Below are positions 3,063 to 53,723 of a stretch of DNA of 64,000 nucleotides, one piece after another; position 1 is the first letter of the stretch; each line of letters opens with the position of its first letter. Below the pieces are notes generated by a model. The model saw only the letters and a program-made list of their open reading frames with translations, was not told the DNA's origin and searched no databases. The stretch spans positions 16,348 to 80,347 of the forward strand of contig CAVPNC010000013.1 in NCBI GenBank assembly GCA_963706695.1. Direction: 5' to 3'. The stretch comes from an uncultured Chloroflexia bacterium (GTDB taxonomy: Bacteria > Chloroflexota > Limnocylindria > Limnocylindrales > CSP1-4). A program made the position numbers and the translations under genes.

Positions 3063-3084
3063 CACGACAGGACGTGTACCCGAC

Positions 3085-5826
<2,742 letters not shown>

Positions 5827-5901
5827 GGCGCCGCGCCACGAGGGCTGCTTCGATGGCACGACCGCGCACGCCAGCCGCTCACCGCAGCCGCTCCGGCCGG
5901 C

Positions 5902-6981: not shown

Positions 6982-6990
6982 GCTCTGCGA

Positions 6991-8592: not shown

Positions 8593-8711
8593 ATCCGCGA
8601 GAGTAGCAAGGCGGGGCCCGGCTCGCACAGCCGAGGGGCACGTCGTGGATATACTCGGTCTCCCGCGCACGGCCTCTTGGCTCGCGCGGCAACGAGGGAG
8701 GAGAAGGCCGA

Positions 8712-11780: not shown

Positions 11781-11865
11781 CTCGCCGGCGGTGCCTCGGG
11801 CATCAGCGGTGATGGCCTCGGCTGCCTCCTGCTCTCGCGTGCGGTACGCCTCCTGAGGCTGGCCC

Positions 11866-12474: not shown

Positions 12475-12597
12475 CGCCGCAGTGTCACATGAAGAACCGC
12501 GGGGCTGCGGTAACATCCACCCGCGCTCGTTGCCTTTCCCGAAGCGCGACTTCGGGCTACGAGCCTTGTCTGAACGAACGGCTCATGAGGAACCGGA

Positions 12598-12957
12598 TTG
12601 ACCGCACCGCTCTGGTACGTGCTCGGCTTCGTCTTCGCGGGGTTCAGCTTCGTGTTCCTCACGATCGGTCTGGCCTGGTTCATCTCGCACCGGCATCGCG
12701 GTGACGAACACAAGGGCCTGCCGTATGAGTCTGGTATCGACACCTACGGCGATACGCGCGGGCGCTTCGGCCTCTCGTTCTACCTCTACGCCCTGCTCTT
12801 CGTGGCCTTCGACATCGAGGTCCTCTTCATCGCCCTCTGGGCGCTCGTCTTCGACGACGTCCTCACCGGAGGCTTCATGGGCATGCTCGTCTTCGTGGGC
12901 ATCATGGAGCTGTCGGTGCTGTACGCCGCCAGGAAAGGCCTGCTGACATGGAAGTGA
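12598..12957 (+). CDS. nuoA: NADH-quinone oxidoreductase subunit A
   Basis: Three TM helices, PYESGIDTYGDTR and FDIEVLFI. TTG start with a GAGGAA SD. First gene of the nuo cluster. Confidence 0.92.
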   Translation: MTAPLWYVLGFVFAGFSFVFLTIGLAWFISHRHRGDEHKGLPYESGIDTYGDTRGRFGLSFYLYALLFVAFDIEVLFIALWALVFDDVLTGGFMGMLVFVGIMELSVLYAARKGLLTWK

Positions 12958-13631
12958 AGCGACCCGGCGGCAAGGATGGCCTGACCACGACGAAGCACAA
13001 GCGCGGCGCCATCGTCCTGCCCAACACCACCTGGACGCCGGCGGACCCAGAGGCCTACAGCGGCGGCCAGCCCGCCACCATCGATCACCTCAAGGAGCTG
13101 GAGTTCGCGGACAAGGGTGACAACGGCCGCTGGGGTGCGCTCGACGTGGTGCCTGCCAATGCGGACCTGCTGCTCGATTACCTCCGCGCCAACAGCCTCT
13201 GGCCGCTGCTCTCGGGGCTCGCCTGCTGCGCCATGGAGATGATGTCGGCCGCGACCGTGGTCAACGACATGGACCGCTTCAACATGTTCCCCTTCCGTGC
13301 CAGCCCACGGCAGGCTGACGTGCTCATCGTGGCGGGCACGCTCACGACCAAGATGGCCGGGCCGCTCATCCGCCTGTGGGAGCAGATGCCGGAGCCCAAG
13401 TGGGTCGTGGCCATGGGTGACTGCACCTGTTCGGGTGGCCGCTACAAGCGCTCCTACGCCACCGTCGAGGGCATCGACCGCATCATGCCCGTCGACGTCT
13501 ACGTGCCTGGCTGTCCTCCCCGCCCGGAAGGACTCATCTACGGGATGATGAAGCTGCAGCAGCTCGTGCTCGAGCGACGCGGCCAGTGGAAGGACCGCAA
13601 GGTCGGCCCCACCGTCCCCGAGGGCGTCTGA
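12948..13631 (+). CDS. nuoB: NADH-quinone oxidoreductase subunit B (N2 cluster subunit), N-terminally extended
   Basis: [10 protein letters not shown] ... MGDCTCSGG ... VPGCPPRPE cluster N2 ligands. Carries a roughly 60-aa N-terminal extension. Confidence 0.95.
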
Positions 13632-13660
13632 TCAGAAGGAGTCGAACCACGGACACGCGC

Positions 13661-14290
13661 ATGCTGGCCCAGCTCGATGATCGCCTTGGTGAGCGTCTGG
13701 TCGTGCCTGCCGAAGGGATGGGTGACACCATCGAGCTGGTCGTCCGTCCAGCCGACCTGACGTTCGTCATGCGCACGCTGCGCGAGGATGGCGACCTGCG
13801 CTTCGAGCTGCTGGCTGACCTCTGCGGCGTGGACACCGGTGTGACCATGCAGGTCGTGTACCACCTCTGGTCCCCGCTCTCGGCCGACTGGGTGCGGGTC
13901 ATCGCCGACGGCCTGTCCCGTGATGACCCGCGCGTGCCCTCGGTCACGCAGCTGTGGCCGGGCGCGGAGTGGGCCGAGCGTGAGGCCTACGACATGTTCG
14001 GCATCGAGTTCGAGGGCAACCGCGACCTGCGCCGCATCTACATGCCGCCCGACTACCTGGCCTTCCCGCTGCGCAAGGACTTCGCCATGCCCGATGACGC
14101 CTCGCGCGGTCCGGGTGAAGGCATCCGCCACATGGAGACGCCGGTGACTCCGGCCGACATCCGGGAGCAGCCGGTCATCCGCACCAGCGCCGGTGCTGGT
14201 GCCCTCCTGGGGGCTGACGGGGAGCTGCTGGCTGTCGGCGCCGGAACGCTCGCGGATGAGGCGCTCGAGCGTGGCGAGGAGCCGGCATGA
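13661..14290 (+). CDS. nuoC: NADH-quinone oxidoreductase subunit C (30 kDa)
   Basis: DLCGVD, WPGAEWAEREAYDMFGIEFEGN. The ATG at 13661 is preferred; the track start at 13586 would overlap nuoB by 46 nt. Has a C-terminal Ala/Gly-rich tail. Confidence 0.9.
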   Translation: MLAQLDDRLGERLVVPAEGMGDTIELVVRPADLTFVMRTLREDGDLRFELLADLCGVDTGVTMQVVYHLWSPLSADWVRVIADGLSRDDPRVPSVTQLWPGAEWAEREAYDMFGIEFEGNRDLRRIYMPPDYLAFPLRKDFAMPDDASRGPGEGIRHMETPVTPADIREQPVIRTSAGAGALLGADGELLAVGAGTLADEALERGEEPA

Positions 14291-15510
14291 GCAACGATCG
14301 CGAGCAGGTCCGCTCCCTGGACGATCCCCACATCATGGTGCAGACGCCGGGCACCATCTACGACGCCATCCCGCCCCTGACCCCCCGCACCGAGCGTGAA
14401 GCCGAGTTCTACCAGCTCGAGGACGGGGAGATGTTCCTCAACCTCGGGCCGCAGCACCCCTCGACCCACGGCGTGCTGCGGGTGGTCATGAAGATCGACG
14501 GCGAGCGCATCGTCGACATCGACCCCGTCCTGGGCTACCTCCATCGCGGCGTCGAGAAGATCTGCGAGCACGGCGATTGGCACCACGCCATCAGCAACAC
14601 CGACCCGCTCGAGTACGCGGCCTCGATGTTCAGCGAATCGCTGCCGGTGCTGGCCGCCGAGCACCTGCTCGAGCTGGAGGTACCGCGCCGAGCCGACTAC
14701 ATCCGGGTGCTGGCCTGGGAGCTCAATCGCATCAGCAGCCACGCCCTCTTCATCGGCTGGCTGGCCCTGGACCTGGGTGGCATCACGCCCATCCTCTACG
14801 GCTTCGGCGAACGCGATGAGATCGTGGAGATGCTGGCCGCCCTCACGGGCCAGAAGCTGCTCTTCAACTACATGCGCATCGGCGGCGTCAACGGCGACCT
14901 CAACCACGAGTTCCTGAGCCGCCTCGGCGACTGGATGGGGCGCGCCGGTGCCCGCATCAACGACCAGGCCACGCTCATGAACGAGAACGAGATCTTCGTC
15001 AACCGCACCAAGGGCCTGGGCGTGATCGACCGCGAGATGGCGCTGCGCCTGGGCATGTCCGGGCCCCCCTTGCGAGCCACGGGTGTGCCCTATGACGTTC
15101 GTCGGGCACATCCCTACAGCGTCTACTCCGAGCTCGAGTTCGACATCCCCACGCGCACCGATGGCGACTCCTACGCCCGCTACCTGCTGCACATCGACGA
15201 GATCAAGCAGTCGATCCGCATCATCGACCAGGTGCTGCACGAGATGCCTGACGGCCCGGTCATGGCCAAGCTGCCACGCCTGCTGCGCATCCCGCCGGCC
15301 CGCGCCTTCGCGGCACTCGAGTCGCCGCGTGGCCAGTACGCGGCCTACGCCGTGAGCGACGGCTCGGACCAGCCCTTCCGCTTCCGCATCCACGACCCCT
15401 CGTTCTTCAACCTGCAGGCCGTGGGCCCGCTGTCGAAGGGCCAGGTGCTGGCTGACATCATGGCCATCATGGCCAGCCTCGACCCCATCATGGGCGGGAT
15501 CGACAAGTGA
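14287..15510 (+). CDS. nuoD: NADH-quinone oxidoreductase subunit D (49 kDa)
   Basis: NLGPQHPSTHGVLR, LGYLHRGVEK, SHALFIGW and C-terminal DPIMGGIDK. ATGA overlap with nuoC. Confidence 0.95.
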   Translation: MSNDREQVRSLDDPHIMVQTPGTIYDAIPPLTPRTEREAEFYQLEDGEMFLNLGPQHPSTHGVLRVVMKIDGERIVDIDPVLGYLHRGVEKICEHGDWHHAISNTDPLEYAASMFSESLPVLAAEHLLELEVPRRADYIRVLAWELNRISSHALFIGWLALDLGGITPILYGFGERDEIVEMLAALTGQKLLFNYMRIGGVNGDLNHEFLSRLGDWMGRAGARINDQATLMNENEIFVNRTKGLGVIDREMALRLGMSGPPLRATGVPYDVRRAHPYSVYSELEFDIPTRTDGDSYARYLLHIDEIKQSIRIIDQVLHEMPDGPVMAKLPRLLRIPPARAFAALESPRGQYAAYAVSDGSDQPFRFRIHDPSFFNLQAVGPLSKGQVLADIMAIMASLDPIMGGIDK

Positions 15511-16904
15511 GCGCCGCGACGGGCCCGGCACCCGCAGGCGTGTCGGCCCTGGGCAAGGTCGTGCTCGGGCTGATCGCCCTCATCGTGGTGGCCAGCGTCG
15601 GCTTCGCCCTGCTCTGGATCACCGGGCTCGGCCCCGACCTGACCGAGTGGGTCCTCGACACCGGCTCGGCCAATATCGAGATCCTGCGCTTCCTCGCGGC
15701 CGCCACGGGGGTGCTCCTGTTCACGGTGCCGGCGGCCTTCGTGATCATCTACATGGAGCTCAAGATCATCGCCCAGATGAACCTGCGCGTCGGTCCTGAC
15801 CGCACCGGGCCCTGGGGCTCGCTGGCCTCGCTGATGGCCGGCCTGAAGGTGCTCTCCAAGGAGGACTACACGCCCCGCGGTGTGGACGTGCCGGTCTACA
15901 CCCTGGCCCCGGCGGTCACGTTCCTGGCCTCGGTCCTGACGCTGCTGGTCATCCCCTTCGCGCCGGGCATGATCGGCTACGAGATGGAGCTGGGGCTGAT
16001 CTACTTCTTCGCAGCCTCGGGCATCGGCGTGGTAGGCCTGATGATGGCCGGCTGGTCCAGCTTCAACAAGTACTCGCTGCTGGGCGGCATCCGCGCCGCA
16101 GCCGCCGTCATCAGCTACGAGCTGCCGCTCATCCTGGGCACCTTCGGCGTGGTCCTGCTGGCGGGCACGCTGAACCTGGGCACGATCGTGGAGAACCAGG
16201 CGGGCTGGGTCTGGAACTGGTACGCCTTCCAGCAGCCGCTGGCCCTGATCATCTTCTTCATCGCCGCCACGGCCGAAGCCGGCCGCACGCCCTTCGACTA
16301 CACCGAGGCGGACTCGGAGCTGGTGGCCGGCTTCGCCACCGAGTACAGCGGCATGCGCTTCGGCTTCTTCTTCTTCGCCGAGTACGTCAACGTCTTCATC
16401 CTCAGCGCCCTCACGGTCACGCTCTTCCTGGGCGGGTACCACCTGGGCGTGGACATCGATCCGGTCCTCTCGTGGGTCGGCATCGAGACGCCGGTGCAGC
16501 TGTCGAACATCGACCCCGGCTCGCTGGGCGCGTGGCTGCTGGCCATCCCGCTGCTGGTGCCGCCCGTGCTCACGCTGGTGCTCGCCGGCCTGCTGTGGAT
16601 GCTCAAGTCGTCGTGGGGCTTCCTGAAGTCCCTGCTCGTGGGCTTCGTCCTGGCCAACCTGCTGGTCGGCGGCCTCATCAGCCTGTGGGCCATCTTCAGC
16701 TTCGAGGCCCTGCTGGGCGTGCTCGTCTTCTTCGGCAAGTCGTTCCTGCTGGTGGCCTTGTTCGTGATGATGCGGGCGACCTACCCCCGCGTGCGCATCG
16801 ACCAGATGATGAACTTCGCCTGGAAGTGGCTGATGCCCGCAGCCCTGCTCAACATCTTCGTCACCGCCGGCGCCATCATCATCATCACGGAGTACTTCTC
16901 GTGA
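15507..16904 (+). CDS. nuoH: NADH-quinone oxidoreductase subunit H (ND1), enlarged
   Basis: MELKIIAQMNLRVGPDRTGPWG, GFATEYSGMRF, FFAEYVN, RATYPRVRIDQ. At 465 aa it has an extra N-terminal TM and a roughly 70-aa hydrophobic insert before the last helices. Confidence 0.93.
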   Translation: MSAATGPAPAGVSALGKVVLGLIALIVVASVGFALLWITGLGPDLTEWVLDTGSANIEILRFLAAATGVLLFTVPAAFVIIYMELKIIAQMNLRVGPDRTGPWGSLASLMAGLKVLSKEDYTPRGVDVPVYTLAPAVTFLASVLTLLVIPFAPGMIGYEMELGLIYFFAASGIGVVGLMMAGWSSFNKYSLLGGIRAAAAVISYELPLILGTFGVVLLAGTLNLGTIVENQAGWVWNWYAFQQPLALIIFFIAATAEAGRTPFDYTEADSELVAGFATEYSGMRFGFFFFAEYVNVFILSALTVTLFLGGYHLGVDIDPVLSWVGIETPVQLSNIDPGSLGAWLLAIPLLVPPVLTLVLAGLLWMLKSSWGFLKSLLVGFVLANLLVGGLISLWAIFSFEALLGVLVFFGKSFLLVALFVMMRATYPRVRIDQMMNFAWKWLMPAALLNIFVTAGAIIIITEYFS

Positions 16905-17740
16905 GGACCGACCGCATCCCCGGCCTGGCCATCGTGAAGGGCATGCTCTTCGCCGTGCGCCAGGTCTTCCGTCCTGGGCTCACGGTGCGCTATCCGGAAG
17001 AGCAGAACCCCATCAGCCCGCGCCACCGCGGCCGGCTCCTCCTGGTCTACGACGAAGCGGGCACGCTCAAGTGCGAGACCTGCTTCCAGTGCGCGCAGGC
17101 CTGTCCCATCGAGTGTATCGACATGGGCGGCGTGGATACGCGCAACCGCTATCACGTGCACTGGGGCGCAGCCGAGCAGTACGCCGAGCGCCGCGAGGAG
17201 TCAGCCCTGCGCCGCTCCGGCCGACCCGTGCCCGATCGCACCTTCGATCCCTTCGAGACCATCGACCTGCGGCCGGTCGACGAGATCCTTGCTGCCGGCA
17301 AGTACAAGCCCAGCCGCTCGCTGGCCATGCTCGAAGCGGTGCAGGGCGCCTACGGCCACCTGCCCGTGGCGGCCCTGCAGCACATCGCCCACCAGACCGG
17401 TGCCAACTACGCCGAGCTCTATGGCATGGCCACCTCCTACCCGCACCTGCACTTCGAGCCGCCGGTCGGCCACGTCGTGCGCGTCTGCCGCTGTGCGCAG
17501 TGCACCCTGCTCGGCGGCGGCCGCGTGCTGGCAGCCTTCCGCGAGCATCTGAGCACCGACGTCGGCGGCGTGAGCCCCGATGGTGCGGTCCGCCTCGCGG
17601 TCACCGAGTGCGGCGGGTCCTCCCACGGCAGCGCGTACGTCGAGGTGGACGGGGAGCCGCTGCCCAAGTCCAGCCCCGAGGACGCGGCCACCATCGCCGC
17701 TGCGCTGCGTGCCACCGTGCCGCAGGGGGAGGCCGCATGA
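16901..17740 (+). CDS. fusion protein: NuoI N-terminal half (single 4Fe-4S motif) + NuoE-like thioredoxin-fold domain
   Basis: The GTG at 16901 overlaps the nuoH stop (GTGA). TVRYPEE..PRHRGR..KCETCFQCAQACPIECI is NuoI-like; SLAMLEAVQGAYGHLP...VCRCAQC...TECGGSSHG is NuoE-like. The 5' part of track ORF 16472.. is an out-of-frame read-through of nuoH. Confidence 0.8.
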   Translation: MRTDRIPGLAIVKGMLFAVRQVFRPGLTVRYPEEQNPISPRHRGRLLLVYDEAGTLKCETCFQCAQACPIECIDMGGVDTRNRYHVHWGAAEQYAERREESALRRSGRPVPDRTFDPFETIDLRPVDEILAAGKYKPSRSLAMLEAVQGAYGHLPVAALQHIAHQTGANYAELYGMATSYPHLHFEPPVGHVVRVCRCAQCTLLGGGRVLAAFREHLSTDVGGVSPDGAVRLAVTECGGSSHGSAYVEVDGEPLPKSSPEDAATIAAALRATVPQGEAA

Positions 17741-19059
17741 GCCTGCCCGTGCTGGCCGGGGCCAAGGACTGGCCGCAGGTGCTGCTGGCCCGAGCCGCGG
17801 ACGCGGCCGTCGCCGACATCGCCGAGGCGGAGGCCGGCGGGGCCTGGACGGCCTTCAGGCGCGCCACCGCTGAGCTGTCGCCTGAAGCGGTCATCCACAC
17901 CGTCACCGAGTCGGGCCTGCGCGGGCTCGGCGGAGCCGGCTATGCCACCGGCGCCAAGTGGCGCGACTGCGTCTCCCAGGCCGATCCGGTCCACTACGTC
18001 GTGGCCAACGGCTTCGAGGCCGATCCAGGCGCCCAGCTCGACCGCTCGCTCATGGAACGGGATCCGCACCTGGTGGTCGAGGGCGTGGCCATCACCGCCT
18101 GGGCGGTCGGAGCCGAGACCGCCATCATCGCCGTCTCCTCCGCTGCCCCCGTGGCCGCGGAGCGCCTGCGCACCGCGATCGACGAAGCCGTCGAGGCCGG
18201 CTACATCGGCCGCTCCGCCGACGGCCGCAGCCTCCAGCTCGAGGTCCGCGAGGTCACCGGCTCCTTCGTGGTCGGCGAGGAGACGGTGCTGCTGCGAGCC
18301 CTCGAGGGCAAGCGCGCCCAACCGGACCAGCGCCCGCCGTTCCCCAGCCGCGAAGGCCTGTGGGGCAAGCCCACGGTGGTCAACAACGTCAAGACGCTCG
18401 CAGCCGTGCCCTGGATCGTGGCTCACGGCGCCGGCGCCTATGCCTCGCTGGGCCTGCCCGAAGCCCCCGGCACCACGCTCGTCCAGCTGGGTGGCGCGGT
18501 CAAGAAGCCCGGTGTCGTGGAGGTGCCCTTCGGGACCACGCTGCGGCAGATCCTCGACGGCCCCGGCGGCAAGACCACGGGCTCGCTCAAGGCCGTGCTG
18601 GTGGGTGGCCCGAGCGGCGGCTTCCTGCCGCCCGACGCACTCGATACGCCCCTGACCTACGAGGCCCTGCGGGAGGCGGGGGCGCTGGCCGGCTCGGGTA
18701 CGCTGCTGGCCCTCGACGAGAGCGCCTGCATCGTGGACGTGGCCACGCTCATGACGCGCTATCTCAATGACAACGCCTGCGGCAAGACCATCCCCTGTCG
18801 CATCGGAACCCGGCGCATGGCCGAGCTGGGCAGCGCCATCTGCTCGGGGCACGTGCGGCCCACTGACGCGGCGCTGCTGGGTGACCTCGCCGCGGACGTG
18901 CGAGCAGCGGCCCTCTGCGGCCTGGAAGCTGACGCTGCCAACCCTCTCCTGAGCGGGATGCGATACTTCGCGCCTGAGTTCGAAGCCCACACCGAGCGTG
19001 GTGAATGCCCGGCCGGTGTGTGCCAACCCATTCGTCTAGCCGGTGCCGTGCTGTCATGA
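17737..19059 (+). CDS. nuoF: NuoF-like (51 kDa) subunit, divergent cofactor motifs
   Basis: ATGA overlap at 17737. GLRGLGGAGYATGAKW, GEETVLLRALEGKRAQP, PPFPSREGLWGKPTVVNNV and the cluster region NACGKTIPCRIG...ALCGLE. Confidence 0.8.
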   Translation: MSLPVLAGAKDWPQVLLARAADAAVADIAEAEAGGAWTAFRRATAELSPEAVIHTVTESGLRGLGGAGYATGAKWRDCVSQADPVHYVVANGFEADPGAQLDRSLMERDPHLVVEGVAITAWAVGAETAIIAVSSAAPVAAERLRTAIDEAVEAGYIGRSADGRSLQLEVREVTGSFVVGEETVLLRALEGKRAQPDQRPPFPSREGLWGKPTVVNNVKTLAAVPWIVAHGAGAYASLGLPEAPGTTLVQLGGAVKKPGVVEVPFGTTLRQILDGPGGKTTGSLKAVLVGGPSGGFLPPDALDTPLTYEALREAGALAGSGTLLALDESACIVDVATLMTRYLNDNACGKTIPCRIGTRRMAELGSAICSGHVRPTDAALLGDLAADVRAAALCGLEADAANPLLSGMRYFAPEFEAHTERGECPAGVCQPIRLAGAVLS

Positions 19060-21668
19060 CCGACACGCTCCCTGAGATCATCCAGCAGCAGCCGGGCCCG
19101 TCACCCGACGAGGCCACCGAGCGGCTGCTCACGACCCAGTCGCCGCAGCGGCCGCAGACATCCGCGGCCTTCGAGATCGAGATCGACGGCCGCACCCTGA
19201 CCGCCCGCGAGGGCCAGACCATCCTCGAGGTCTGCCGCGACGCCGGCATCGAGGTGCCCACGCTCTGCTACGAGCCCAAGCTGCCCGGCTTCGGTGCCTG
19301 CCGCATGTGCGTGGTCGAGGTCGAGGGTGAGGACACTCCGCCCATCTCGTGCTCGCGCGAGGCTGAAGCGGGCATGGTCGTGCAGACGCAGACCCAGCGG
19401 CTGCGGGAGATCCGCAAGACCAACCTGGAGCTGATCTTCAGCGACCACAACGCCTACTGCCTGCCGCCCTGCCAGAACAAGTGCCCCAGCCACATCGACA
19501 TCCCCGGCTTCCTCAAGGCCAACACCGAGGGTGACTTCGTCGAGTCCACGCGCATCTTCAAGCGCACCATCCCCTTCCCCTCGACGCTCGGGCGGGTGTG
19601 CCCAGCGCCGTGCGAGGAGCACTGTCGCCGCGACGAGGTCGAGGAAGCCATCGCCATCCGCGACAGCCACCGCTACGCCGGCGACCAGGTGCTCAAGGCC
19701 CAGGCTGAGGGCGTCAAGCCGCCCCTGCCCTTCGACCAGCAGCCGTCCACGGGCAAGCGCGTGGCCGTCATCGGCTCCGGGCCTACGGGCATGTCAGCTG
19801 CCTACTACCTCTCGCTCAGCGGCCACGAGGTCACCGTCTACGAACGCGACCCGGAGGCCGGCGGCATGCTGCGCTACGGCATCCCCGAGTACCGCCTGCC
19901 CAAGGAACGTGTCCTCGAGCCCGAGTACGAGGCCGTGTGGGAGCTCGGCGCCAGGCTCGTGACGGGCGCGGAGCTGGGCGTGGACTTCACCATCGACGAC
20001 CTCCAGAACCAGGGCTTCGATGCGGTGCTGGTGGCCATCGGCTGCTACGACACCAACAAGCTGGGCATCCCGGGCGAGGACGCGGACGGGGTCATCGACG
20101 GCCTCGAATACCTCCGCGTCGCCACGCTCGGACTGCCCTACCCCGAGCACAAGGGCAAGCGCGTCGTGGTCATCGGCGGCGGCTTCACCTCCATGGACTG
20201 CTCGCGCACCTCGGTGCGCCAGGGCTGCACGGAGACGACCCTGGTCTACCGCCGCGACATGAAGGACATGCCCGCTGCGGACGAGGTGCACGAGATGCTC
20301 GAAGAGGGCGCGCGCGCCATCTTCCAGGCCTCGCCCACGCGCGTCGTCACGGACAAGGACGACAAGGTCACCGGGGTCGAGTTCCAGCGCATGGCACTGG
20401 GCGAGCCGGACGCCTCCGGCCGGCGCCGACCACAGCCGGTCGAGGGCACCGAGTTCATCATCGACTGCGACCGCGTGCTCCTGGCCATCGGCCAGGGTCC
20501 CAAGCTGGACTGGCTTGAGCACGGCGCCGAGGGCATCGAGAAGACCAAGCGCTGGCGACTGGATGCGGACGCGGTCACCTTCGGTACCGGGCGCGCAGGC
20601 GTCTTCGGGGCCGGGGACGTGCGCACGGGCGCTGCCACGGTGGTGGAGGCCATCGCCGAGGGGCGACGCGCGAGCTACGCCATCGATGCCTATCTGCAGG
20701 GCCAGGACCTCGACGAGATCCGCACGCGCCAGACGCTCGCGGAGCCGCAGCCCGAGTTCCTCTCCATCGTGCCCTACACCAGCGAGGTCAAGGAGCCGCG
20801 CATCCGCCTGAAGGCCATGCCGGCCGAGGAGCGCAACAGCTCGTATGTCGAGTACGAGATCCCTTACACCGCCGAAGAGGCCATGTCCGAGTCAGCACGC
20901 TGCCTCCAGTGCACCTGCGAGGCCATCGGCTATTGCGACCTCCGTCGGCAGGGCATCGAGTACGGCACCACGCTGCAGACGCTTGAGCCCAAGCGCACCG
21001 GCCTCTCCTTCCGCAGCGTGAGCGAGAACCGCTTCACCGGCACCAACCACGACTACATCCGCGACGACAGCCACTCCTTCATCCTGCGCGAACCCTCGCG
21101 CTGCATCGACTGCGGCCGCTGCGCCAACGTCTGCCGCGAGGTCGTGGGTGCGGCCTGCTACGACTTCATGCGCACCGGCTTCGACACGCTCGTGACGACG
21201 CCGCTGGACATGAGCCTCAACACCACGCCCTGCGTCTCCTGTGGCCGCTGTGCCGAGACCTGTCCCACGGGCGCGCTCATGCCCAAGCCACGCGTGCTCG
21301 AGAAGTACGAGGTGGACGAGTCTCGCTGCATCCTCTGCGGCATCTGCGTCGATGCCTGCCCCTACGACGCGCTCCGCTGCGGACCGGACTTCGAGCTCGC
21401 ACACGAGTCGCGCGCGGAGCCGCAGATCGACCTCATCGCCCTCGCTGCGATGGACCGTGACTCGGAGATGAGCTACGTCCGCCGCGAACGCGACTGGCTC
21501 AGCCGCGCCCAGGCTGATGGTCGCGACATCCCGCACGAGCGGCTGCTGCCCATGCTGCCGCCGGGACTGGCCGGGAGCAGCGGCAACGGGAACGGTAGAA
21601 CCAGCACCGTCGCTGACTCCACCACCGGCGCAGCCGGGGGTGGCGCAGCGTCGGTCCACCACAAGTAG
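19056..21668 (+). CDS. chimeric Fe-S flavoprotein: NuoG-type [2Fe-2S] + inserted GltD-like NAD(P)H/FAD module + NuoG-type 4Fe-4S motifs + NuoI-like C-terminus; no molybdopterin-like domain
   Basis: ATGA overlap at 19056. LCYEPKLPGFGACRMCVVEV..ISCS; CLPPCQNKCPSHIDIP..GRVCPAPCEEHC; VIGSGPTGMSAAYYL; VVIGGGFTSMDCSRT; GVFGAGDV; CIDCGRCANVC; CVSCGRCAETCP; CILCGICVDACPYDALRCGPDFELAHE. Confidence 0.8.
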   Translation: MTDTLPEIIQQQPGPSPDEATERLLTTQSPQRPQTSAAFEIEIDGRTLTAREGQTILEVCRDAGIEVPTLCYEPKLPGFGACRMCVVEVEGEDTPPISCSREAEAGMVVQTQTQRLREIRKTNLELIFSDHNAYCLPPCQNKCPSHIDIPGFLKANTEGDFVESTRIFKRTIPFPSTLGRVCPAPCEEHCRRDEVEEAIAIRDSHRYAGDQVLKAQAEGVKPPLPFDQQPSTGKRVAVIGSGPTGMSAAYYLSLSGHEVTVYERDPEAGGMLRYGIPEYRLPKERVLEPEYEAVWELGARLVTGAELGVDFTIDDLQNQGFDAVLVAIGCYDTNKLGIPGEDADGVIDGLEYLRVATLGLPYPEHKGKRVVVIGGGFTSMDCSRTSVRQGCTETTLVYRRDMKDMPAADEVHEMLEEGARAIFQASPTRVVTDKDDKVTGVEFQRMALGEPDASGRRRPQPVEGTEFIIDCDRVLLAIGQGPKLDWLEHGAEGIEKTKRWRLDADAVTFGTGRAGVFGAGDVRTGAATVVEAIAEGRRASYAIDAYLQGQDLDEIRTRQTLAEPQPEFLSIVPYTSEVKEPRIRLKAMPAEERNSSYVEYEIPYTAEEAMSESARCLQCTCEAIGYCDLRRQGIEYGTTLQTLEPKRTGLSFRSVSENRFTGTNHDYIRDDSHSFILREPSRCIDCGRCANVCREVVGAACYDFMRTGFDTLVTTPLDMSLNTTPCVSCGRCAETCPTGALMPKPRVLEKYEVDESRCILCGICVDACPYDALRCGPDFELAHESRAEPQIDLIALAAMDRDSEMSYVRRERDWLSRAQADGRDIPHERLLPMLPPGLAGSSGNGNGRTSTVADSTTGAAGGGAASVHHK

Positions 21669-21692
21669 TCGACAGGGGGTTCGGAAGAGGGA

Positions 21693-22274
21693 GTGGAGCT
21701 ACCGGGGACGGTCCCGTATCTCGACTGGCGCTGGGATGACCTGATCTTCCTGCTGCTGGCCGGCGTGATGCTGGGCTCCGCGCTGCTCGTCGTGCTCGGC
21801 CGGGACATCATCCGGTCCGCGCTCTGGCTCATCCTGTCCTTCGCCGCCCTCGCGGGCGTGTACGGCCTGCTCGGCAGCGCCTTCCTGGCCATCAGCCAGG
21901 TGCTCACCTACGTGGGTGCCATCGCGGTGCTCATCCTCTTCGCGGTCATGATCACGCAGTCCAAGCGCGGTCCCAGCGAGCTCGTCTTCAACCGCCAGTG
22001 GTGGGCCGGCGCCATCGCCGCCATCGTGCTGGTCGGGCTCATGATCATCAGCATCCTGCTCACGGAGTGGGACGTGACCAGCGAGGTGCAGGTGGCCGAG
22101 GCGCGCGAGATCGCGCTGACCATCTACCAGGAGTACATGTTCGCCTTCCTCGCCCTGGGCGTGCTGCTGCTGGCCGGCGTCATCGGCGGGCTCTACCTGG
22201 CCAAGCGTGACGACGACATGCCCGAGACCAACATCCAGGCCCGCACCATGCCTGACGAGGAGGAGGGCGCGTGA
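21693..22274 (+). CDS. nuoJ: NADH-quinone oxidoreductase subunit J (ND6)
   Basis: Five TM helices, AISQVLTYVGAIAVLILFAVM. Position between the input genes and nuoK. GTG start. Confidence 0.88.
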   Translation: MELPGTVPYLDWRWDDLIFLLLAGVMLGSALLVVLGRDIIRSALWLILSFAALAGVYGLLGSAFLAISQVLTYVGAIAVLILFAVMITQSKRGPSELVFNRQWWAGAIAAIVLVGLMIISILLTEWDVTSEVQVAEAREIALTIYQEYMFAFLALGVLLLAGVIGGLYLAKRDDDMPETNIQARTMPDEEEGA

Positions 22275-22582
22275 GCCAGTCGCTCGAGGCCTACCTCATC
22301 CTCGCGGTCCTGCTCTTCGGCATCGGCGCCTTCGGCTTCCTCGCCAAGCGCAACGCCATCGCCATGCTCATGTCCATCGAGCTCATGCTCAACTCGGTCA
22401 ACCTGGCCATCATCGCCTTCGGGGCCTTCACGCCGGAGTTCGCGGCGCAGGCGTCGACCATCGCCCTCTTCGTCATCGCGGTGGCTGCCGGTGAGGCCAC
22501 CGTGGGCCTGGCCATCGTCATCGCCATCTACCGCAACCGCAGGACGCCGCTCGTCGACGAGTACGCGTCGATGAAGGAGTAG
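22271..22582 (+). CDS. nuoK: NADH-quinone oxidoreductase subunit K (ND4L)
   Basis: 103 aa, three TM helices, SIELMLNSVNLAIIAF and AAGEATVGLAIVIAIYR. GTGA overlap with nuoJ. Confidence 0.93.
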   Translation: MSQSLEAYLILAVLLFGIGAFGFLAKRNAIAMLMSIELMLNSVNLAIIAFGAFTPEFAAQASTIALFVIAVAAGEATVGLAIVIAIYRNRRTPLVDEYASMKE

Positions 22583-22588
22583 GCGGCG

Positions 22589-24646
22589 ATGGACCTGGTC
22601 TTCAACGCGGAGGAGGGCGGCCTGCTCTTCATCCCGCCCGAGCCCGCGGGCGAGCTCGAGACGTTCCTCATCCTGCTCGTGCTGGCCCTGCCCCTCGCCG
22701 GCTTCCTGCTCACCGGTCTGGTCGGCCGTCGCTTGTCACGGCCGTGGGTCATCTCGGTCGCAGCCATCGTGGCCGCCACGCTGGTGGCTACCTACCTCGC
22801 CTTCGGGCAGCTGTCGGGCGCCTACGGCGAACATGGCATCCAGCACATGTTCTACACCTGGATCGGCGTCGCCGACCTGCAGGTGGAGTTCGGCTTCGTG
22901 CTCGACAACCTCTCGGCGCTGATGCTCATCGTGGTCACCTGGATCGGGGCCCTGGTGCACATCTACAGCATCGGCTACATGGAGCACGACCCGTCGAAGT
23001 GGCGCTTCTTCGCGTACCTCAACCTGTTCATGTTCTCGATGCTGCTGCTGGTGCTCGCGAGCAGCTACCTGGTGGTCTTCGGCGCGTGGGAGCTGGTGGG
23101 CCTGTCCTCCTACCTGCTCATCGGCTTCTGGTACACCAAGCGAGCGCCGGCGCTGGCCTCCAAGAAGGCCTTCCTCGTCAACCGCGTCGCCGACCACGGC
23201 TTCCTCGTCGGCATCATCGGCGTCTTCCTGATCACCGGAACGATGGACATCTTCACGTCCTTCGGCGCCTGGAACACGGCCACGGTGGACCCGCTCGTAC
23301 GCAACACCGTGGCCTTGCTGCTGTTCGTGGGTGCGGCCGGCAAGAGCGCCCAGTTCCCCTTCCACGTCTGGCTGCCGGACGCGATGGAGGGCCCCACGCC
23401 GGTTTCCGCGCTCATCCATGCCGCGACCATGGTCAACGCCGGTGTCTACTTCATCGCCCGCACCACGCCCATCTTCGCCTCCGCGCCGGAGGCGCTGCTG
23501 GTGGTGGCGCTGCTGGGCACGTTCACGGCAGTCCTGGCCGCGACCATCGCGCTGACCCAGAAGGACATCAAGCGCGTCCTGGCCTACTCCACCCTGAGCC
23601 AGCTGGGCTACATGTTCATGGCCCTGGGTGTGGGTGCCTGGCTGGCGGCCATCTTCCACCTCATGGCCCACGGCTTCACCAAGGGCCTGCTCTTCCTCGG
23701 CTCCGGCTCGGTCATCCACGCGATGCACGAGGAGCAGGACATGACCAAGATGGGCGGGCTCTGGCGCAAGATCCCGTGGACCCACGCGACCTTCCTCATC
23801 GGCGCCCTGTCGCTCGCGGGGATCCCGCTCTTCGCCGGCTTCTTCTCGAAGGACCTGATCCTCGACGAGGCCTTCGTCCTCGGCTGGTGGCCGGTGTTCA
23901 TCGTGGGCATCATCGTGGCCGCGCTGACCGGCTTCTACATGTTCCGGCTCATGGGCCTGACCTTCTACGGCAAGAGCCGCGTGGACCCGGAGGTCGAGCC
24001 CAAGATCCATGAATCACCGCCCTCGATGGTGGCCCCGCTGGTCCTGCTCTCCATCCCGACCATGTTCCTGGGCCTGGTCATCGGGACCGGACTCTTCGTC
24101 AACGACAGTGGCAAGGTCGCCTTCGACCCGGGCGGACCGGTGCTCGGGATCTCGCCCATCAAGAAGTGGCTGGAACCGGTCTTCCATCCGGGCGAGGTCA
24201 TCCTCGGCATCACCTTCCCCGAGTACGAGTTCTTCGGCCTCAACGGCACGTTGCTGGTCATCTCGGTGGCGATGGCAGCCCTGGGCATCGGCGCGGCCAT
24301 CTGGCTCTTCGGTGTCTTCAACTCGCGCGCTCGCCTCGAGACCGTGGACAGCCTGACCCAGCGCAACCGGGTCAGCCGCTTCCTCTACACCGCGTCGCTC
24401 AACAAGTGGTACTTCGATGACCTCAACCACTACCTCTTCTACGTCATCGGCGGGCGCGTGGCCAACGGCGTGATGTGGTTCGACGTCAGGATCATCGACG
24501 GAGTGGTCAACGGCGTCGGCGCCGTGACCCAGCGCATCGGTGACGACGTTCGCCAGATCCAGACGGGCCGCGTGCAGAACTACGCTCTCGGCATCGCCAT
24601 CGGCCTCATCGTCATCGCCACGCTCTTCATGCTGATGGCCCGCTGA
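22589..24646 (+). CDS. nuoL: NADH-quinone oxidoreductase subunit L (ND5)
   Basis: WELVGLSSYLLIGFWY, GKSAQFPFHVWLPDAMEGPTPVSALIHAATMV and a long C-terminal lateral-helix region. 685 aa. Confidence 0.95.
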   Translation: MDLVFNAEEGGLLFIPPEPAGELETFLILLVLALPLAGFLLTGLVGRRLSRPWVISVAAIVAATLVATYLAFGQLSGAYGEHGIQHMFYTWIGVADLQVEFGFVLDNLSALMLIVVTWIGALVHIYSIGYMEHDPSKWRFFAYLNLFMFSMLLLVLASSYLVVFGAWELVGLSSYLLIGFWYTKRAPALASKKAFLVNRVADHGFLVGIIGVFLITGTMDIFTSFGAWNTATVDPLVRNTVALLLFVGAAGKSAQFPFHVWLPDAMEGPTPVSALIHAATMVNAGVYFIARTTPIFASAPEALLVVALLGTFTAVLAATIALTQKDIKRVLAYSTLSQLGYMFMALGVGAWLAAIFHLMAHGFTKGLLFLGSGSVIHAMHEEQDMTKMGGLWRKIPWTHATFLIGALSLAGIPLFAGFFSKDLILDEAFVLGWWPVFIVGIIVAALTGFYMFRLMGLTFYGKSRVDPEVEPKIHESPPSMVAPLVLLSIPTMFLGLVIGTGLFVNDSGKVAFDPGGPVLGISPIKKWLEPVFHPGEVILGITFPEYEFFGLNGTLLVISVAMAALGIGAAIWLFGVFNSRARLETVDSLTQRNRVSRFLYTASLNKWYFDDLNHYLFYVIGGRVANGVMWFDVRIIDGVVNGVGAVTQRIGDDVRQIQTGRVQNYALGIAIGLIVIATLFMLMAR

Positions 24647-26199
24647 TGACCGACTTCCTCGAACGTCCCGACCTGCTCACGCTGCTGATCCTCACGCCGC
24701 TCATCGGCGCGCTGATCCTGCTCTTCGTGCCCGGAAGGCGTGAGGACATCCATCGCTGGGGCGCCTTCGCCATCTCGCTGGTGGCCGTGGGCATCTCGCT
24801 GCTCATCGCGCTCAGCTTCGACAACGAGCGCGAGGGCTTCCAGCTCGTGCAGGAGGTCGACTGGATCGGCTTCTTCGGCATCCAGTACAAGGTCGGCGTG
24901 GACGGCATCAGCCTGGTCCTGGTGCTGCTCACGACGCTCCTGACGTCGATCAGCATCCTGGCCTCGTTCGGTCCCATCAAGACGCGCGTGAAGGAATACA
25001 TGATCGCCTTCCTCGTGCTGGAGGTGGGCATGCTGGGCGTGTTCCTGAGCCTTGACCTCTTCCTCTTCTACGTCTTCTGGGAAGTGGTGCTCGTGCCCAT
25101 GTACCTGATCATCGGTATCTGGGGCGGGGCCAACCGCATCTACGCCACCATCAAGTTCGTCATCTACACGCTGGTGGGCTCGCTCCTGATGCTGGTCGCC
25201 ATCCTGGCCATCGCGTGGACGTACGCACAGGAGACCGGCTCGTGGGTGGGTGCCTTCGACTACACCACGCTGGTCGAGTTCGGCTTCGACCCGACCCTGC
25301 AGTTCTGGGCCTTCCTGGGCTTCTTCCTGGCCTTCGCCATCAAGATCCCGATGTGGCCCCTGCACACGTGGCTGCCCGATGCCCACACCGAAGCCCCCAC
25401 GGCCGGTTCGGTCATCCTCGCGGGTGTCCTGCTCAAGCTCGGCGGGTATGGGCTCATCCGCATGAACCTGCCGCTCTTCCCCGACGCCACGCAGGACCTG
25501 GCCCCGTTCGTCATCGCGCTCTCGATCGTGGGCATGCTCTACGGCGCCATCGTGGCCATCCGTCAGACCGACCTCAAACGCCTCATCGCCTACTCGTCGG
25601 TCAGCCACATGGGCTTCGTCACGCTGGGCATCTTCGTGCTCAACGAACAGGGCGTGCAGGGCGCCATCTTCCAGATGGTCGGCCACGGCGTCATCACGGG
25701 TGCGCTCTTCCTCCTCGTGGGCGTCATCTACGAGCGCACCCACGACCGCACCATCGCCAAGATGGGTGGCCTGGGCCAGCGCGTGCCGGTCTTCGCCACG
25801 CTGATGGTCTTCTTCAGCCTGGCCTCGGCGGGCCTGCCTGGCCTGGCCGGCTTCGTGGGGGAGTTCCTGGTCATCCTGGGCGCCGTGACGTGGGAGCCCT
25901 GGGTCGGCTACGTGGCCGCCTTCACCATCATCTTCGCGGCGGTCTACCTGCTCTACATGGTCCAGAACATCATCATGGGCGACGTCACCGACTTCCTCAA
26001 GGGCCTGGGTGACAAGCTCACCGACGTCAGCCGCGTCGAGGTCGCCACGCTGGCGCCGCTGGTGCTGCTAACGGTGGTGCTGGGCCTCTTCCCGGCGCTC
26101 GTGCTGGACATCACGGCCATGCCGGTCGACCTCATCCTCGAGGTCGTGGCCAACGCCGCTGATGCCGCTGCCGAGTCGACCGCGGGGCTGCTGCCATGA
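24646..26199 (+). CDS. nuoM: NADH-quinone oxidoreductase subunit M (ND4)
   Basis: FYVFWEVVLVPMYLIIGIWGG, KIPMWPLHTWLPDAHTEAPTAGSVILAGVLLKLGGYG. Confidence 0.95.
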   Translation: MTDFLERPDLLTLLILTPLIGALILLFVPGRREDIHRWGAFAISLVAVGISLLIALSFDNEREGFQLVQEVDWIGFFGIQYKVGVDGISLVLVLLTTLLTSISILASFGPIKTRVKEYMIAFLVLEVGMLGVFLSLDLFLFYVFWEVVLVPMYLIIGIWGGANRIYATIKFVIYTLVGSLLMLVAILAIAWTYAQETGSWVGAFDYTTLVEFGFDPTLQFWAFLGFFLAFAIKIPMWPLHTWLPDAHTEAPTAGSVILAGVLLKLGGYGLIRMNLPLFPDATQDLAPFVIALSIVGMLYGAIVAIRQTDLKRLIAYSSVSHMGFVTLGIFVLNEQGVQGAIFQMVGHGVITGALFLLVGVIYERTHDRTIAKMGGLGQRVPVFATLMVFFSLASAGLPGLAGFVGEFLVILGAVTWEPWVGYVAAFTIIFAAVYLLYMVQNIIMGDVTDFLKGLGDKLTDVSRVEVATLAPLVLLTVVLGLFPALVLDITAMPVDLILEVVANAADAAAESTAGLLP

Positions 26200-27725
26200 G
26201 CGACGACGTGCTGACCCTGCTGCCGTTCGTGCTCGTGGTGGCCACGGCCCTGCTGGTCATCCTGGTGGATCTCTTCTGGCCCCGGCGCAACGAGCTGGTC
26301 ATGGCGGTCGGGCTGGGCGGTCTCAGCGCGGCCCTCGTGGCCACGCTGCTCATCGGGCCCATGCCCTGGGACTTCGCCAGCCTGAGCGAGGCTTCGTCCT
26401 TCGGTGACCCCGCGCTCTACACGCGAGACCTGCTGACGTCGCTGCTCGACTTCACCCTCATCGCCATCGGCATCCTGACGCTGCTCTTCGCCCCCGACTA
26501 CCTCACCCCGCGCAAGCTGCCCCTGGCCGAGTTCACCGCCACACTCATCTTCGCCGTCAGCGGCGGCATGCTCATCGCCGGCGGCCAGGACATGCTGGTG
26601 CTCTTCATCGGGCTCGAGCTGCTGGTGCTGCCGGGCTACCTGCTGGCGGGCTTCGCCAAGCGTGACGGGCTCTCCACCGAGGGCGCCATCAAGTACTTCC
26701 TGCTGGGCTCCTTCTCCAGCGCCATCCTGCTGTTCGGCCTGGCCTTCGTCATCGGCTACACCGGCAACACCCAGCTCGCCGGCATCGCCGAGGCGCTCTC
26801 GGGCGTGCTCGACGGGAACGCGGCCCTGCCGTTGGCGCTGGCCATGGGCCTGGCCCTGCTGGCGGTGGGCGTGCTGTTCAAGATCGCCGCGGTGCCCTTC
26901 CACTACTGGACGCCGGACGCCTACCAGGGCTCGCCCACGCCTGTCACCGGCTACCTCTCGGTCGGTCCCAAGATCGCCGCCTTCGCGCTCATCCTGCGCA
27001 TCTTCGTGGAGGCCCTGGGGCCACTCCGCGGCGAGTGGGCCCTCATCGTGGGCGTGCTCGCCGGCCTGACCATGACCGTGGGCAACCTGGCGGCCCTGGG
27101 CCAGGACAACATCAAGCGCATGTTGGCCTACTCGTCCATCGCCCACACCGGCTACATCATGGTCGGTCTCGTGGTCTTCGCCACGGCTGAGAACCGTGAC
27201 GCAGCCGCGGCTGGCGTGCAAGCCGTGCTCTTCTACGCGGTGGCCTACGCCTTCATGAACCTCGGTGCCTTCGCGGTCGTGGCCGCGCTGCAGCGGCGCC
27301 CCGGCATCACCAGCCAGATCTCCACCTTCGCTGGCCTCGGCTATCGCGCCCCGGTGCTGGCCCTGGCCATGACCGTCTTCCTGCTCTCCCTGGTGGGCAT
27401 CCCGCCGCTGGCCGGCTTCTTCGCCAAGATGACCGTGGTGCTGTCGGCCCTCGAGGTCGGCGGGCCCATGACCCTGCTGGCGGTGCTGATGATGCTGAAC
27501 GCAGCCATGGCCGCCTTCTACTACCTGCGCGTGGTCGTCTACATGTACATGCGCAAGCCGGAGGGCGCCGCCGCCGAGGTGAGCGTGGGCACGGTCACCC
27601 GCGTCGGGCTCATCGTGGCCGCGGCTGCAGTCATCGTGATCGGCCTCGTGCCACCGGTGACCGGCGCCATCCTGGACTGGACGGAGGCGGCCGCGCAGAG
27701 CCTCGTGCTCCTCATCGACTTCTAG
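26196..27725 (+). CDS. nuoN: NADH-quinone oxidoreductase subunit N (ND2)
   Basis: GLELLVLPGYLL, KIAAVPFHYWTPDAYQGSPTPVTGYLS. Last gene of the operon; ATGA overlap with nuoM. Confidence 0.95.
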   Translation: MSDDVLTLLPFVLVVATALLVILVDLFWPRRNELVMAVGLGGLSAALVATLLIGPMPWDFASLSEASSFGDPALYTRDLLTSLLDFTLIAIGILTLLFAPDYLTPRKLPLAEFTATLIFAVSGGMLIAGGQDMLVLFIGLELLVLPGYLLAGFAKRDGLSTEGAIKYFLLGSFSSAILLFGLAFVIGYTGNTQLAGIAEALSGVLDGNAALPLALAMGLALLAVGVLFKIAAVPFHYWTPDAYQGSPTPVTGYLSVGPKIAAFALILRIFVEALGPLRGEWALIVGVLAGLTMTVGNLAALGQDNIKRMLAYSSIAHTGYIMVGLVVFATAENRDAAAAGVQAVLFYAVAYAFMNLGAFAVVAALQRRPGITSQISTFAGLGYRAPVLALAMTVFLLSLVGIPPLAGFFAKMTVVLSALEVGGPMTLLAVLMMLNAAMAAFYYLRVVVYMYMRKPEGAAAEVSVGTVTRVGLIVAAAAVIVIGLVPPVTGAILDWTEAAAQSLVLLIDF

Positions 27726-53684: not shown

Positions 53685-53717
53685 CTCGATTCCTCCCGGT
53701 ATCGGGTGAGGCTCGCG

Positions 53718-53723
53718 TATAAT
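53718..53723 (+). promoter_or_regulatory. perfect TATAAT -10 hexamer upstream of rpmH (candidate promoter)
   Basis: cgcgTATAATccg sits about 145 nt upstream of the rpmH GTG. There is no good -35. A DnaA-box-like ACATCCACA lies at 53797-53805. Confidence 0.3.

Follow-up and report, generated by a model that had tools for sequence, protein, structure and literature searches.

In a 64,000-nucleotide (nt) stretch of contig CAVPNC010000013.1 from an uncultured Chloroflexia bacterium (assembly GCA_963706695.1; this whole stretch is hereafter called the window), we found a nuo operon for complex I in which the iron-sulfur subunit NuoI is carried on two polypeptides. Judged by profile matches and cysteine motifs, the two pieces are complementary halves of one subunit, each fused to a different protein of an embedded three-gene redox cassette. 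The operon consists of 13 same-strand genes at 12598-27725, with very high third-position G+C in a window of ~69% G+C, in the order nuoA-B-C-D-H-[NuoI N-half+NuoE-like]-[NuoF-like]-[2Fe2S+GltD+2x4Fe4S+NuoI C-half]-J-K-L-M-N. We find the feature to be real, present lineage-wide and kept by strong selection, and it seems to be a previously undescribed variant of complex I. We assign a probability of roughly 0.6 to the reading that the product of the operon is a proton-pumping NAD(P)H:quinone oxidoreductase of the complex I type whose electron-input end has been rebuilt by way of a trans-split NuoI.

The divided NuoI subunit and its operon

Gene identities were assigned with Pfam and NCBIfam profile searches, and the cassette proteins were also compared with PDB chains by phmmer. 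As the earlier note on this DNA had proposed, three genes lie between nuoH and nuoJ, where nuoI normally sits, and the NuoI-half, NuoE-like and NuoF-like domains that it had named in them were recovered by the profiles. We refer to these genes as gene 2, gene 3 and gene 4; they and their domains are as follows:

16901..17740, + strand: gene 2, fusion of the NuoI N-terminal half and a NuoE-like domain (279 amino acids, aa)
16901..17146, + strand: NuoI N-terminal half (gene 2 aa 1-82), with the first CxxCxxCxxxCP motif
17267..17707, + strand: NuoE/NfnC-like thioredoxin-like 2Fe-2S domain (gene 2 aa 123-269; Pfam PF01257, E 4.5e-23)
17737..19059, + strand: gene 3, NuoF/NfnB-like flavoprotein (440 aa; FMN, SLBB and 4Fe-4S domains by Pfam)
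19056..21668, + strand: gene 4, NfnA/StnC-like large subunit with the NuoI C-terminal half (870 aa)
19167..19394, + strand: N-terminal [2Fe-2S] domain (gene 4 aa 38-113; Pfam Fer2_4, E 1.4e-20), equivalent to NuoG N1b and Bfu A1
19458..20705, + strand: GltD/NfnB-type domain (gene 4 aa 135-550; Pfam Fer4_20 and Pyr_redox_2; NCBIfam PRK12814, 552 bits)
21081..21290, + strand: HydA/NuoG-type 2x[4Fe-4S] ferredoxin domain (gene 4 aa 676-745; Pfam Fer4_Nqo3 and Fer4_7)
21291..21560, + strand: NuoI C-terminal half (gene 4 aa 746-835), with the second CxxCxxCxxxCP motif (C758-C768)

Residues 10-82 of gene 2 match positions 12-84 of a 180-position NuoI profile (E 5.5e-16) and correspond to residues 9-77 of the 180-residue PDB NuoI chain 8e9g_I; the first cysteine motif within them (C58, C61, C64 and C68; nt 17072-17107) reads CETCFQCAQACP. 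Residues ~746-800 of gene 4 match TIGR01971 positions 71-114 of 121 (E 3.5e-13) and correspond to residues 93-143 of the 163-residue NuoI chain 8qby_I, and this half also holds the GPDFELA signature and the conserved tail. The proposal that the first cassette gene starts with a NuoI N-terminal half and the last ends with a NuoI-like C-terminal half is thus borne out by both profile and PDB chain matches. In canonical NuoI a loop separates the two cysteine motifs, and it is at this loop that the N-terminal piece stops and the C-terminal piece starts. When gene 2 residues 1-82 were spliced in silico to gene 4 from residue 744 on, the product gave one unbroken match to the TIGR01971 NuoI model (positions 1-114 of 121; 103.7 bits), compared with 51.8 and 46.0 bits for the separate halves, and all nine of its top-scoring families were NuoI/NdhI models.

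The cysteine motifs lead to the same pairing. Instead of lying within a single chain of ~160-180 aa, the two CxxCxxCxxxCP motifs are found in the 279-aa and 870-aa proteins, ~4.2 kb apart. Gene 4 contains three CxxCxxCxxxC motifs, and because the first two align one-to-one with the A2 and A4 motifs of NfnA, the third has no partner in its own chain; gene 2 has exactly one orphan motif of this type. The same alignment rules out the candidate in which the third motif of gene 4 pairs with the preceding one as a self-contained ferredoxin. In a 2x[4Fe-4S] ferredoxin, three of the cysteines of each cluster belong to one motif and the fourth to its partner, so that neither NuoI half would bind a cluster alone and the halves would have to reassociate to bind N6a and N6b.

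To follow the feature among relatives, we scanned one genome per GTDB species, which matched at least 515 genomes, and fetched the best 80. All eight NuoI cysteines are invariant among the relatives (81/81 sequences for the N-terminal half and 61/61 for the C-terminal half). Of the loci long enough to show both halves, 61 of 61 have them, at a spacing of ~4.1 to 4.4 kb, and the 20 loci without a C-terminal half all stop at a contig end. The earlier note had asked for the same gene order in relatives, and every fetched genome that is long enough shows A-B-C-D-H-[I'E]-F-[G'I'']-J-K-L-M-N. Because of this conservation, misassembly at the junctions is excluded and the design can be taken as ancestral to a large clade. 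An artefact or a product of decay, be it through misassembly, through a frameshift in nuoI or as a soluble Nfn-like enzyme lodged within a dead nuoI, is accordingly an explanation that we find scarcely credible: order and reading frames are identical across 80 species-level genomes from many projects (where these are long enough), the cysteines of both halves do not vary, start and stop codons overlap by 4 nt at three of three cassette junctions, and the operon holds no other nuoI. We found nothing in favour of this explanation, although the large gene is split by frameshifts in some long-read relatives (locus L001).

The remaining genes of the operon form a complex I core:

12598..12957, + strand: nuoA (119 aa; Pfam Oxidored_q4, E 2.2e-26)
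12948..13631, + strand: nuoB (227 aa; Pfam Oxidored_q6; cluster N2 ligand motifs present)
13586 (GTG) or 13661 (ATG)..14290, + strand: nuoC (Pfam Complex1_30kDa, E 2.6e-38)
14287..15510, + strand: nuoD (407 aa; NCBIfam NuoD, 435 bits)
15507..16904, + strand: nuoH (465 aa; Pfam NADHdh, E 2.9e-96, match in two stretches)
21693..22274, + strand: nuoJ (Pfam Oxidored_q3)
22271..22582, + strand: nuoK (Pfam Oxidored_q2)
22589..24646, + strand: nuoL (Pfam Proton_antipo_N, _M and _C)
24646..26199, + strand: nuoM (Pfam Proton_antipo_M)
26196..27725, + strand: nuoN (Pfam Proton_antipo_M)

All ten of these subunits have Pfam matches above the gathering score. NuoB carries the N2 ligand motifs, among them PGCPP, and NuoD carries GPQHPSTHG and GYLHRG, the motifs that in known NuoD proteins contain the quinone-site histidine and tyrosine. 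With these motifs and every membrane subunit in place, the machinery downstream of the cassette appears intact. NuoH owes its length of 465 aa to an insertion (aa ~313-403, nt 16443-16715) between positions 248 and 249 of the Pfam profile; this hydrophobic stretch of ~90 aa is kept in the Limnocylindria loci and could add transmembrane helices near the usual seat of the NuoI N-terminus.

The junctions quoted previously are exact: nuoD runs directly into nuoH through a GTGA overlap at 15507-15510, and the cassette is joined by GTGA at 16901-16904 and by ATGA at 17737-17740 and 19056-19059. With start-stop overlaps at all four, the view of the whole operon as translationally coupled stands, and the remaining junctions mostly overlap or are separated by 6 to 24 nt. 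The sole coordinate uncertainty in the operon is the nuoC start, where GTG at 13586 gives a 46-nt overlap with nuoB and ATG at 13661 a 29-nt gap; the codon at 13628 that overlaps the nuoB stop is CTG, a non-standard start. A scan of 11800-28800 for promoters and terminators showed no excess over shuffled sequence, with no promoters and with four terminator-like sites where 3.2 were expected.

Ancestry and distribution of the cassette

The earlier note had treated the cassette as relocated genes of the nuoE, nuoF and nuoG type, a view that did not survive comparison: its sequences place the cassette with the NfnABC/Stn modules of the Bfu family and not with the N-module of complex I, because gene 4 matches NfnA/StnC and gene 3 favours NfnB/HydB over NuoF. 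In a comparison covering all solved structures, residues 40-767 of gene 4 aligned to residues 5-698 of Caldicellulosiruptor NfnA (9bov_A; E 3.7e-169), and the same region matched Sporomusa StnC (8oh5_C; E 6e-146) and an archaeal NfnA (9n5u_A; E 2e-143). The largest part of gene 4, missed by the earlier note, is a GltD FAD/NADPH domain at aa 135-550, which has two [4Fe-4S] sites, an FAD motif (GSGPxG) and an NADPH motif (GGGFT[SA]MD...VYRR); the FAD and NADPH motifs are invariant among the relatives. Equally invariant are the motifs that flank this domain, HxxxCxxxCxxxCP (H131-P144) and CxxCxCxxxxxC (C616-C627), which constitute the Nso/Stn signature and have been described as the scar of GltD integration into a NuoG-like protein in Nso/Stn (PMC7483475). 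In the alignment to 9bov_A, the two motifs of the ferredoxin domain (C683-C693 and C726-C736) correspond to those of Bfu clusters A2 and A4. Where NfnA normally has its vestigial formate-dehydrogenase-like (Fdh-like) domain, gene 4 instead continues from the A4 motif straight into the NuoI C-terminal half. The earlier description of gene 4 as NuoG-like therefore holds for the N-terminal 2Fe-2S and the 2x[4Fe-4S] domains and fails for the rest, which is mostly GltD flavoprotein without a molybdopterin-like body; the TIGR01973 NuoG model matches only residues 41-139 (94 bits, with a cut-off of 470), and no molybdopterin Pfam domain was found in gene 4. The protein ends in a low-complexity tail rich in Gly, Ser, Ala and Thr (aa 836-870, nt 21561-21665), before which tblastn alignments to more distant relatives usually end.

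Gene 3 likewise sides with the NfnB/HydB-type subunits, which it matches at 376 bits compared with ~273 bits for genuine NuoF, and its 357 bits against TIGR01959 NuoF fall below the cut-off of 558.65. Its alignment to NfnB (584 residues) is confined to residues 116-526 of the latter, and it lacks both the N-terminal thioredoxin-like domain (B5) and the C-terminal 2x[4Fe-4S] domain (B3 and B4), while a B2-like CPxGxC remnant (CPAGVC; C424 and C429) is conserved. In gene 2, a conserved linker joins the NuoI N-terminal half to the NuoE-like domain, whose 2Fe-2S site (nt 17486-17623, aa 196-241) has the sequence VCRCAQC; C196, C198 and C201 are invariant in the 81 sequences and C237, the sole downstream cysteine of the site, is cysteine in 68 of them.

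Taken together, the cassette by its sequence relationships belongs to the Bfu/NfnABC lineage, with its genes in the order C-B-A. When it is removed and the NuoI halves are rejoined, what remains is A-B-C-D-H-I-J-K-L-M-N, the operon order of the 11-subunit complex I. The earlier suggestion of an ABCDHIJKLMN-type core with a pyridine-nucleotide-oxidizing cassette inside nuoI is upheld, given that the NuoI halves are fused in frame to the cassette genes, and we infer that the operon arose by insertion of a three-gene NfnABC/Stn-like cassette into the nuoI of an 11-subunit-type core.

Among the best 80 relatives, nearly all are labelled as Limnocylindrales, Limnocylindria or unclassified Chloroflexota/Chloroflexia metagenome-assembled genomes (MAGs), CSP1-4 included, with a few labelled otherwise (Anaerolineaceae and two Acidobacteriota-type names); many are MAGs from soil and freshwater. 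Database relatives of the gene 2 fusion number in the thousands; the 120 best of the cluster representatives listed are 72-100% identical to it and almost all exactly 279 aa long. The arrangement is therefore common, one part of a condition that the earlier note had named as refuting it; the other part, that it be already characterized, did not hold, as we found no paper that does so.

More distantly related fusions (25-30% identity) were seen in two further settings. The first is a rare and deeply divergent second Chloroflexota lineage (L083, L086 and L087; stretches L086 8303-12917 and L087 6481-14281) with the order nuoA-B-C-D-H-[I'E]-F-[G'GltD-I''] and no adjacent nuoJ-N, in which gene 2 is ~25% and gene 4 ~48% identical to its counterpart in the window. 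Its spliced halves score 106.9 bits as NuoI (TIGR01971 cut-off 113.05), and its gene 3 has lost the third N3/B1 cysteine instead (CGRCIPG) and also has the Asp of the NADE motif replaced. The NuoH insertion is missing in this lineage (NuoH of 355-372 aa). Directly after the large gene, L086 has a hairpin followed by a T-run, and L087 has genes for a flavin reductase, a GYD protein, a ferredoxin and subunits of pyruvate:ferredoxin oxidoreductase (POR).

The second setting is a Por-Bfu-type cluster in another Chloroflexota genome (L085 7819-15933), which starts with POR gamma, delta and alpha and continues with a half-ferredoxin fused to BfuC, a full-length BfuB (637 aa) and an Nfn-like large subunit with GltD, the last of these frameshifted in the long-read assembly. 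It ends with a fusion of the A2/A4 ferredoxin, a third cysteine motif and POR beta, so that here the C-terminal half is joined to POR beta. The spliced halves resemble NuoI best (76 bits), with the N-terminal NuoI segment of ~21 profile positions missing. These two settings suggest that the cassette and the split NuoI-derived adapter have moved together between enzyme systems, and the pair in L085, which links an Nfn-like cassette to POR beta, fits a role for the split NuoI as an electron-conduit adapter.

Proposed electron path and competing explanations

In the solved NfnABC structure, NADPH electrons follow the path FAD-A7-A6-A3-A2-A1-B1/FMN, a side branch of clusters A4 and A5 leads from A2 into the Fdh-like domain and ends there, and the N-terminus of the E-like subunit sits against that domain (PMC11829005). 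By homology to this structure, NADPH would reduce the FAD of the GltD domain and the electrons would then pass to A7, A6, A3 and A2. The A2 to A4 branch, a dead end in soluble NfnA, would here be extended into the reassembled NuoI (clusters N6a and N6b) and from there to N2 in NuoB and to quinone, with the flow driving proton pumping by NuoH/J/K/L/M/N. A second input could enter at the NuoF-like FMN and reach A2 via B1 and A1, with NADH as a second donor or with exchange between NADPH and NADH. The reassembled NuoI would act as both clasp and wire, clamping the cassette onto NuoB/C/D/H and connecting it to N2; its N-terminal half would tether the E-like subunit and its C-terminal half the large subunit, in place of the Fdh-like domain. 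Taken one step further, Limnocylindria would respire NADPH directly via a proton-pumping complex I, with a domesticated, non-bifurcating NfnABC-type input held by the trans-assembled split NuoI and with this clasp perhaps a portable adapter, a broader proposal that we advance tentatively and at slightly under even odds.

Several points weigh against a rebuilt complex I of this kind. The 103.7 bits of the spliced NuoI fall just short of the curated TIGR01971 cut-off of 113.05, and an AlphaFold2 model of it from the single sequence was uninformative (mean predicted local distance difference test, pLDDT, 33; predicted template modelling score, pTM, 0.20). The fourth canonical cysteine of the NuoE-like 2Fe-2S site, the counterpart of cluster C1 in BfuC, is present in 0 of 81 sequences and the usual second CxxxC pair is never complete, though C198 may substitute for the missing ligand. 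In gene 3, the N3/B1 motif is CGKTIPC with its second cysteine changed to Thr (T351), and among 77 relatives this position is Thr in 61 and Cys in 13; the NADE motif is NGFEAD (F93), or NG[F/Y]EAD across the relatives, with Phe or Tyr in place of the FMN-contacting Asp. The NADPH specificity of the GltD domain is inferred only from motifs, aligned with those of NfnA, the quinone is probably menaquinone on the assumption that it matches other Chloroflexota, and electrons might enter NuoI from A3/N5, as in canonical complex I, and not from A4 as proposed.

An alternative that we consider rather unlikely is an ordinary NADH:quinone complex I in which the NuoF-like FMN is the main input and the GltD domain is an accessory, such as an internal transhydrogenase from NADPH to NAD+, a sensor of redox state or an overflow valve. 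The FMN/NADH-fold motifs GGAG[FY]P, GEET and NNV[EK]T are conserved in gene 3, its C348, C354 and C394 are almost invariant, and an FMN-B1-A1-A2 chain is present by homology to NfnABC, all as this alternative would have it. It sits less well with mean identities across the 28 loci covering all 13 genes, which are 82% for gene 4, 68% for gene 2 and 64% for gene 3: the GltD-bearing subunit shares first place in conservation with NuoK, whereas gene 3 is among the two least conserved. One N3/B1 cysteine is lost in most Limnocylindria and another in the second lineage, and the NADE Asp is replaced in both. Because these two motifs are non-canonical, NADH input at gene 3 may be weak, altered or lost.

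The preferred NADPH-to-quinone direction could also be turned around, since the proposed wiring is symmetric and complex I is reversible. An enzyme operating mainly in reverse, in which proton-motive force and quinol would drive the reduction of NADP+ (and/or NAD+) to serve biosynthesis or CO2 fixation, is nevertheless improbable in our view, as the window gives no signs of lithoautotrophy, its neighbouring genes being of housekeeping and envelope types, and many MAGs from soil and fresh water have the operon in conserved form.

A bifurcating or confurcating enzyme of the Nuo-Bfu type that also uses ferredoxin (NADPH to quinone plus ferredoxin, or NADH plus reduced ferredoxin) would be in keeping with the descent of the cassette from the bifurcating Bfu family, with the FMN, B1 and C1 elements at least partly present and the vestigial B2-type CPxGxC conserved. 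The loss of B2-B5 marks non-bifurcating homologues, however (PMC11829005, PMC9304861), and deletion of B3/B4, reported as required, abolished bifurcation in a HydABC enzyme (PMC11829005). Since the NuoF-like subunit of the window has no B3, B4 or B5 domains, the enzyme is probably non-bifurcating and not dependent on ferredoxin; canonical ligands are also lost at C1 and B1, and the operon contains no ferredoxin gene. We regard such an enzyme as very improbable.

Complex I inputs are usually described as NADH via NuoEFG, ferredoxin in NDH-1 and F420H2 in Fpo. If the NADPH-linked reading is right, a lineage-wide GltD-type NADPH/FAD input would be a fourth type and would touch on the long-standing question of NADPH use by complex I; it would be the first natural NADPH-linked complex I, and NuoI the first of its core Fe-S subunits to be assembled in trans. 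The division of a 2x[4Fe-4S] core subunit along its pseudo-twofold axis, with the halves on different partners, is a natural form of modular docking that is relevant to how complex I is assembled, evolves and might be engineered, and the clasp may be a portable adapter for docking the cassette onto other enzymes such as pyruvate oxidoreductase. In parallel with an argument made for Nuo-Bfu (PMC9304861), we suggest that such an input might help to explain the driving force in organisms that respire with low-potential menaquinone. Soils and lakes commonly harbour this group, and at least 515 of its species-level genomes carry the design, so that the redox physiology of these organisms matters for models of them; automatic names such as 'NADH:ubiquinone oxidoreductase subunit E' and 'glutamate synthase small subunit' hide the design.

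Genomic surroundings and comparison with known systems

In the other 49 kb of the window, no nuo gene, and hence no second nuoI or nuoEFG, was found among the 33 flanking open reading frames (ORFs) scanned of the 46 predicted window-wide (all but 13 at 49982-63950), a result that covers the window only. The scanned ORFs encode Lon, DnaJ, PurH, a sulfatase, HPPK, a trehalose phosphatase, a major facilitator superfamily (MFS) transporter, an inositol-phosphate synthase, glycosyltransferases and similar proteins. An ORF of 1521 aa at 3004-7569 on the minus strand has no Pfam match at E<=1e-5 and a third-position G+C of 0.77, compared with 0.87-0.94 in its neighbours; ORFs 7655-8110, 8128-8670, 41974-43347 and 46351-48471 also gave no Pfam match. 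At 36768-41870 on the minus strand lies a gene for a 1700-aa protein with PMT-type protein O-mannosyltransferase domains in its C-terminal third only, and near it at 43005-44882 on the plus strand is a TMEM260-like O-mannosyltransferase gene. Both lie among genes for glycosyltransferases and inositol-phosphate synthase, which suggests a locus for glycosylation of the envelope.

The earlier note knew of no description of the arrangement, and we found none either in the searchable full-text literature (subscription journals partly covered), including any split NuoI or NuoI fusion. The closest systems each share part of it. Canonical 14-subunit complex I (Nuo/Nqo of Thermus thermophilus and E. 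coli) has in common with the window NuoA, B, C, D, H and J-N with their N2 and quinone-site motifs, as well as NuoE-like 2Fe-2S, NuoF-like FMN/4Fe-4S and NuoG-like N-terminal 2Fe-2S/4Fe-4S domains. It differs in its order (A-B-C-D-E-F-G-H-I-J, compared with A-B-C-D-H-...-J), whereas the window has NuoI on two polypeptides, no molybdopterin-like NuoG body, an additional GltD FAD/NADPH domain and an F-like subunit closer to NfnB/HydB than to NuoF. An 11-subunit class of complex I-like enzymes is described in PMC3144371 and PMC11238625. Members without NuoEFG, such as cyanobacterial NDH-1 and the Nuo of Dehalococcoides and Desulfitobacterium, have the same core order as the window minus its cassette, but with an intact NuoI and no dedicated pyridine-nucleotide module.

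The cassette itself is nearest to NfnABC/Stn/Nso (9BOV, 8OH5 and 9N5U), with which it shares the three-gene order of E-like, F-like and GltD-containing large subunit, the alignment of the large subunit over residues 40-767, and the signature, FAD and NADPH motifs. Unlike NfnABC, the window encodes this module inside the operon of a membrane complex, with the NuoI C-terminal half in place of the Fdh-like domain and its cluster A5, an F-like subunit without the B5 and B3/B4 domains, and an E-like subunit that gains the NuoI N-terminal half.

Systems that combine such modules with other enzymes come closest in concept. Schut et al. 2022 (PMC9304861) predicted a Nuo-Bfu complex encoded by a 14-subunit A-N cluster in which BfuABC replaces NuoEFG and the Bfu members keep B2-B5, and reported it in Deferribacteres, Proteobacteria, Planctomycetes and Nitrospirae, not in Limnocylindria. 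A Bfu-type module feeding a complex I core is thus common to both, but gene order differs, the F-like subunit of the window has lost B3-B5, and neither GltD nor a split NuoI is mentioned for Nuo-Bfu. The same study predicted Por-Bfu and Mbh-Bfu in Chloroflexi (PMC9304861), where Bfu genes are sandwiched in the operon of another enzyme as in the window; their partner is a pyruvate:ferredoxin oxidoreductase or a [NiFe] hydrogenase instead of complex I, and the Por-Bfu-type cluster L085 has the same split NuoI-like halves with a full-length BfuB. In the Mbx-like operons of Thermotoga, a gltD-related flavoprotein substitutes for NuoI (Degli Esposti 2015; PMC4758237). These operons, like the window, place a GltD-type NAD(P)H flavoprotein at the NuoI position of a complex-I-related membrane module; there, however, NuoI is substituted and not split, NuoE/F-like subunits are absent, and the membrane module is of the Mrp/Mbx type and not a full Nuo.

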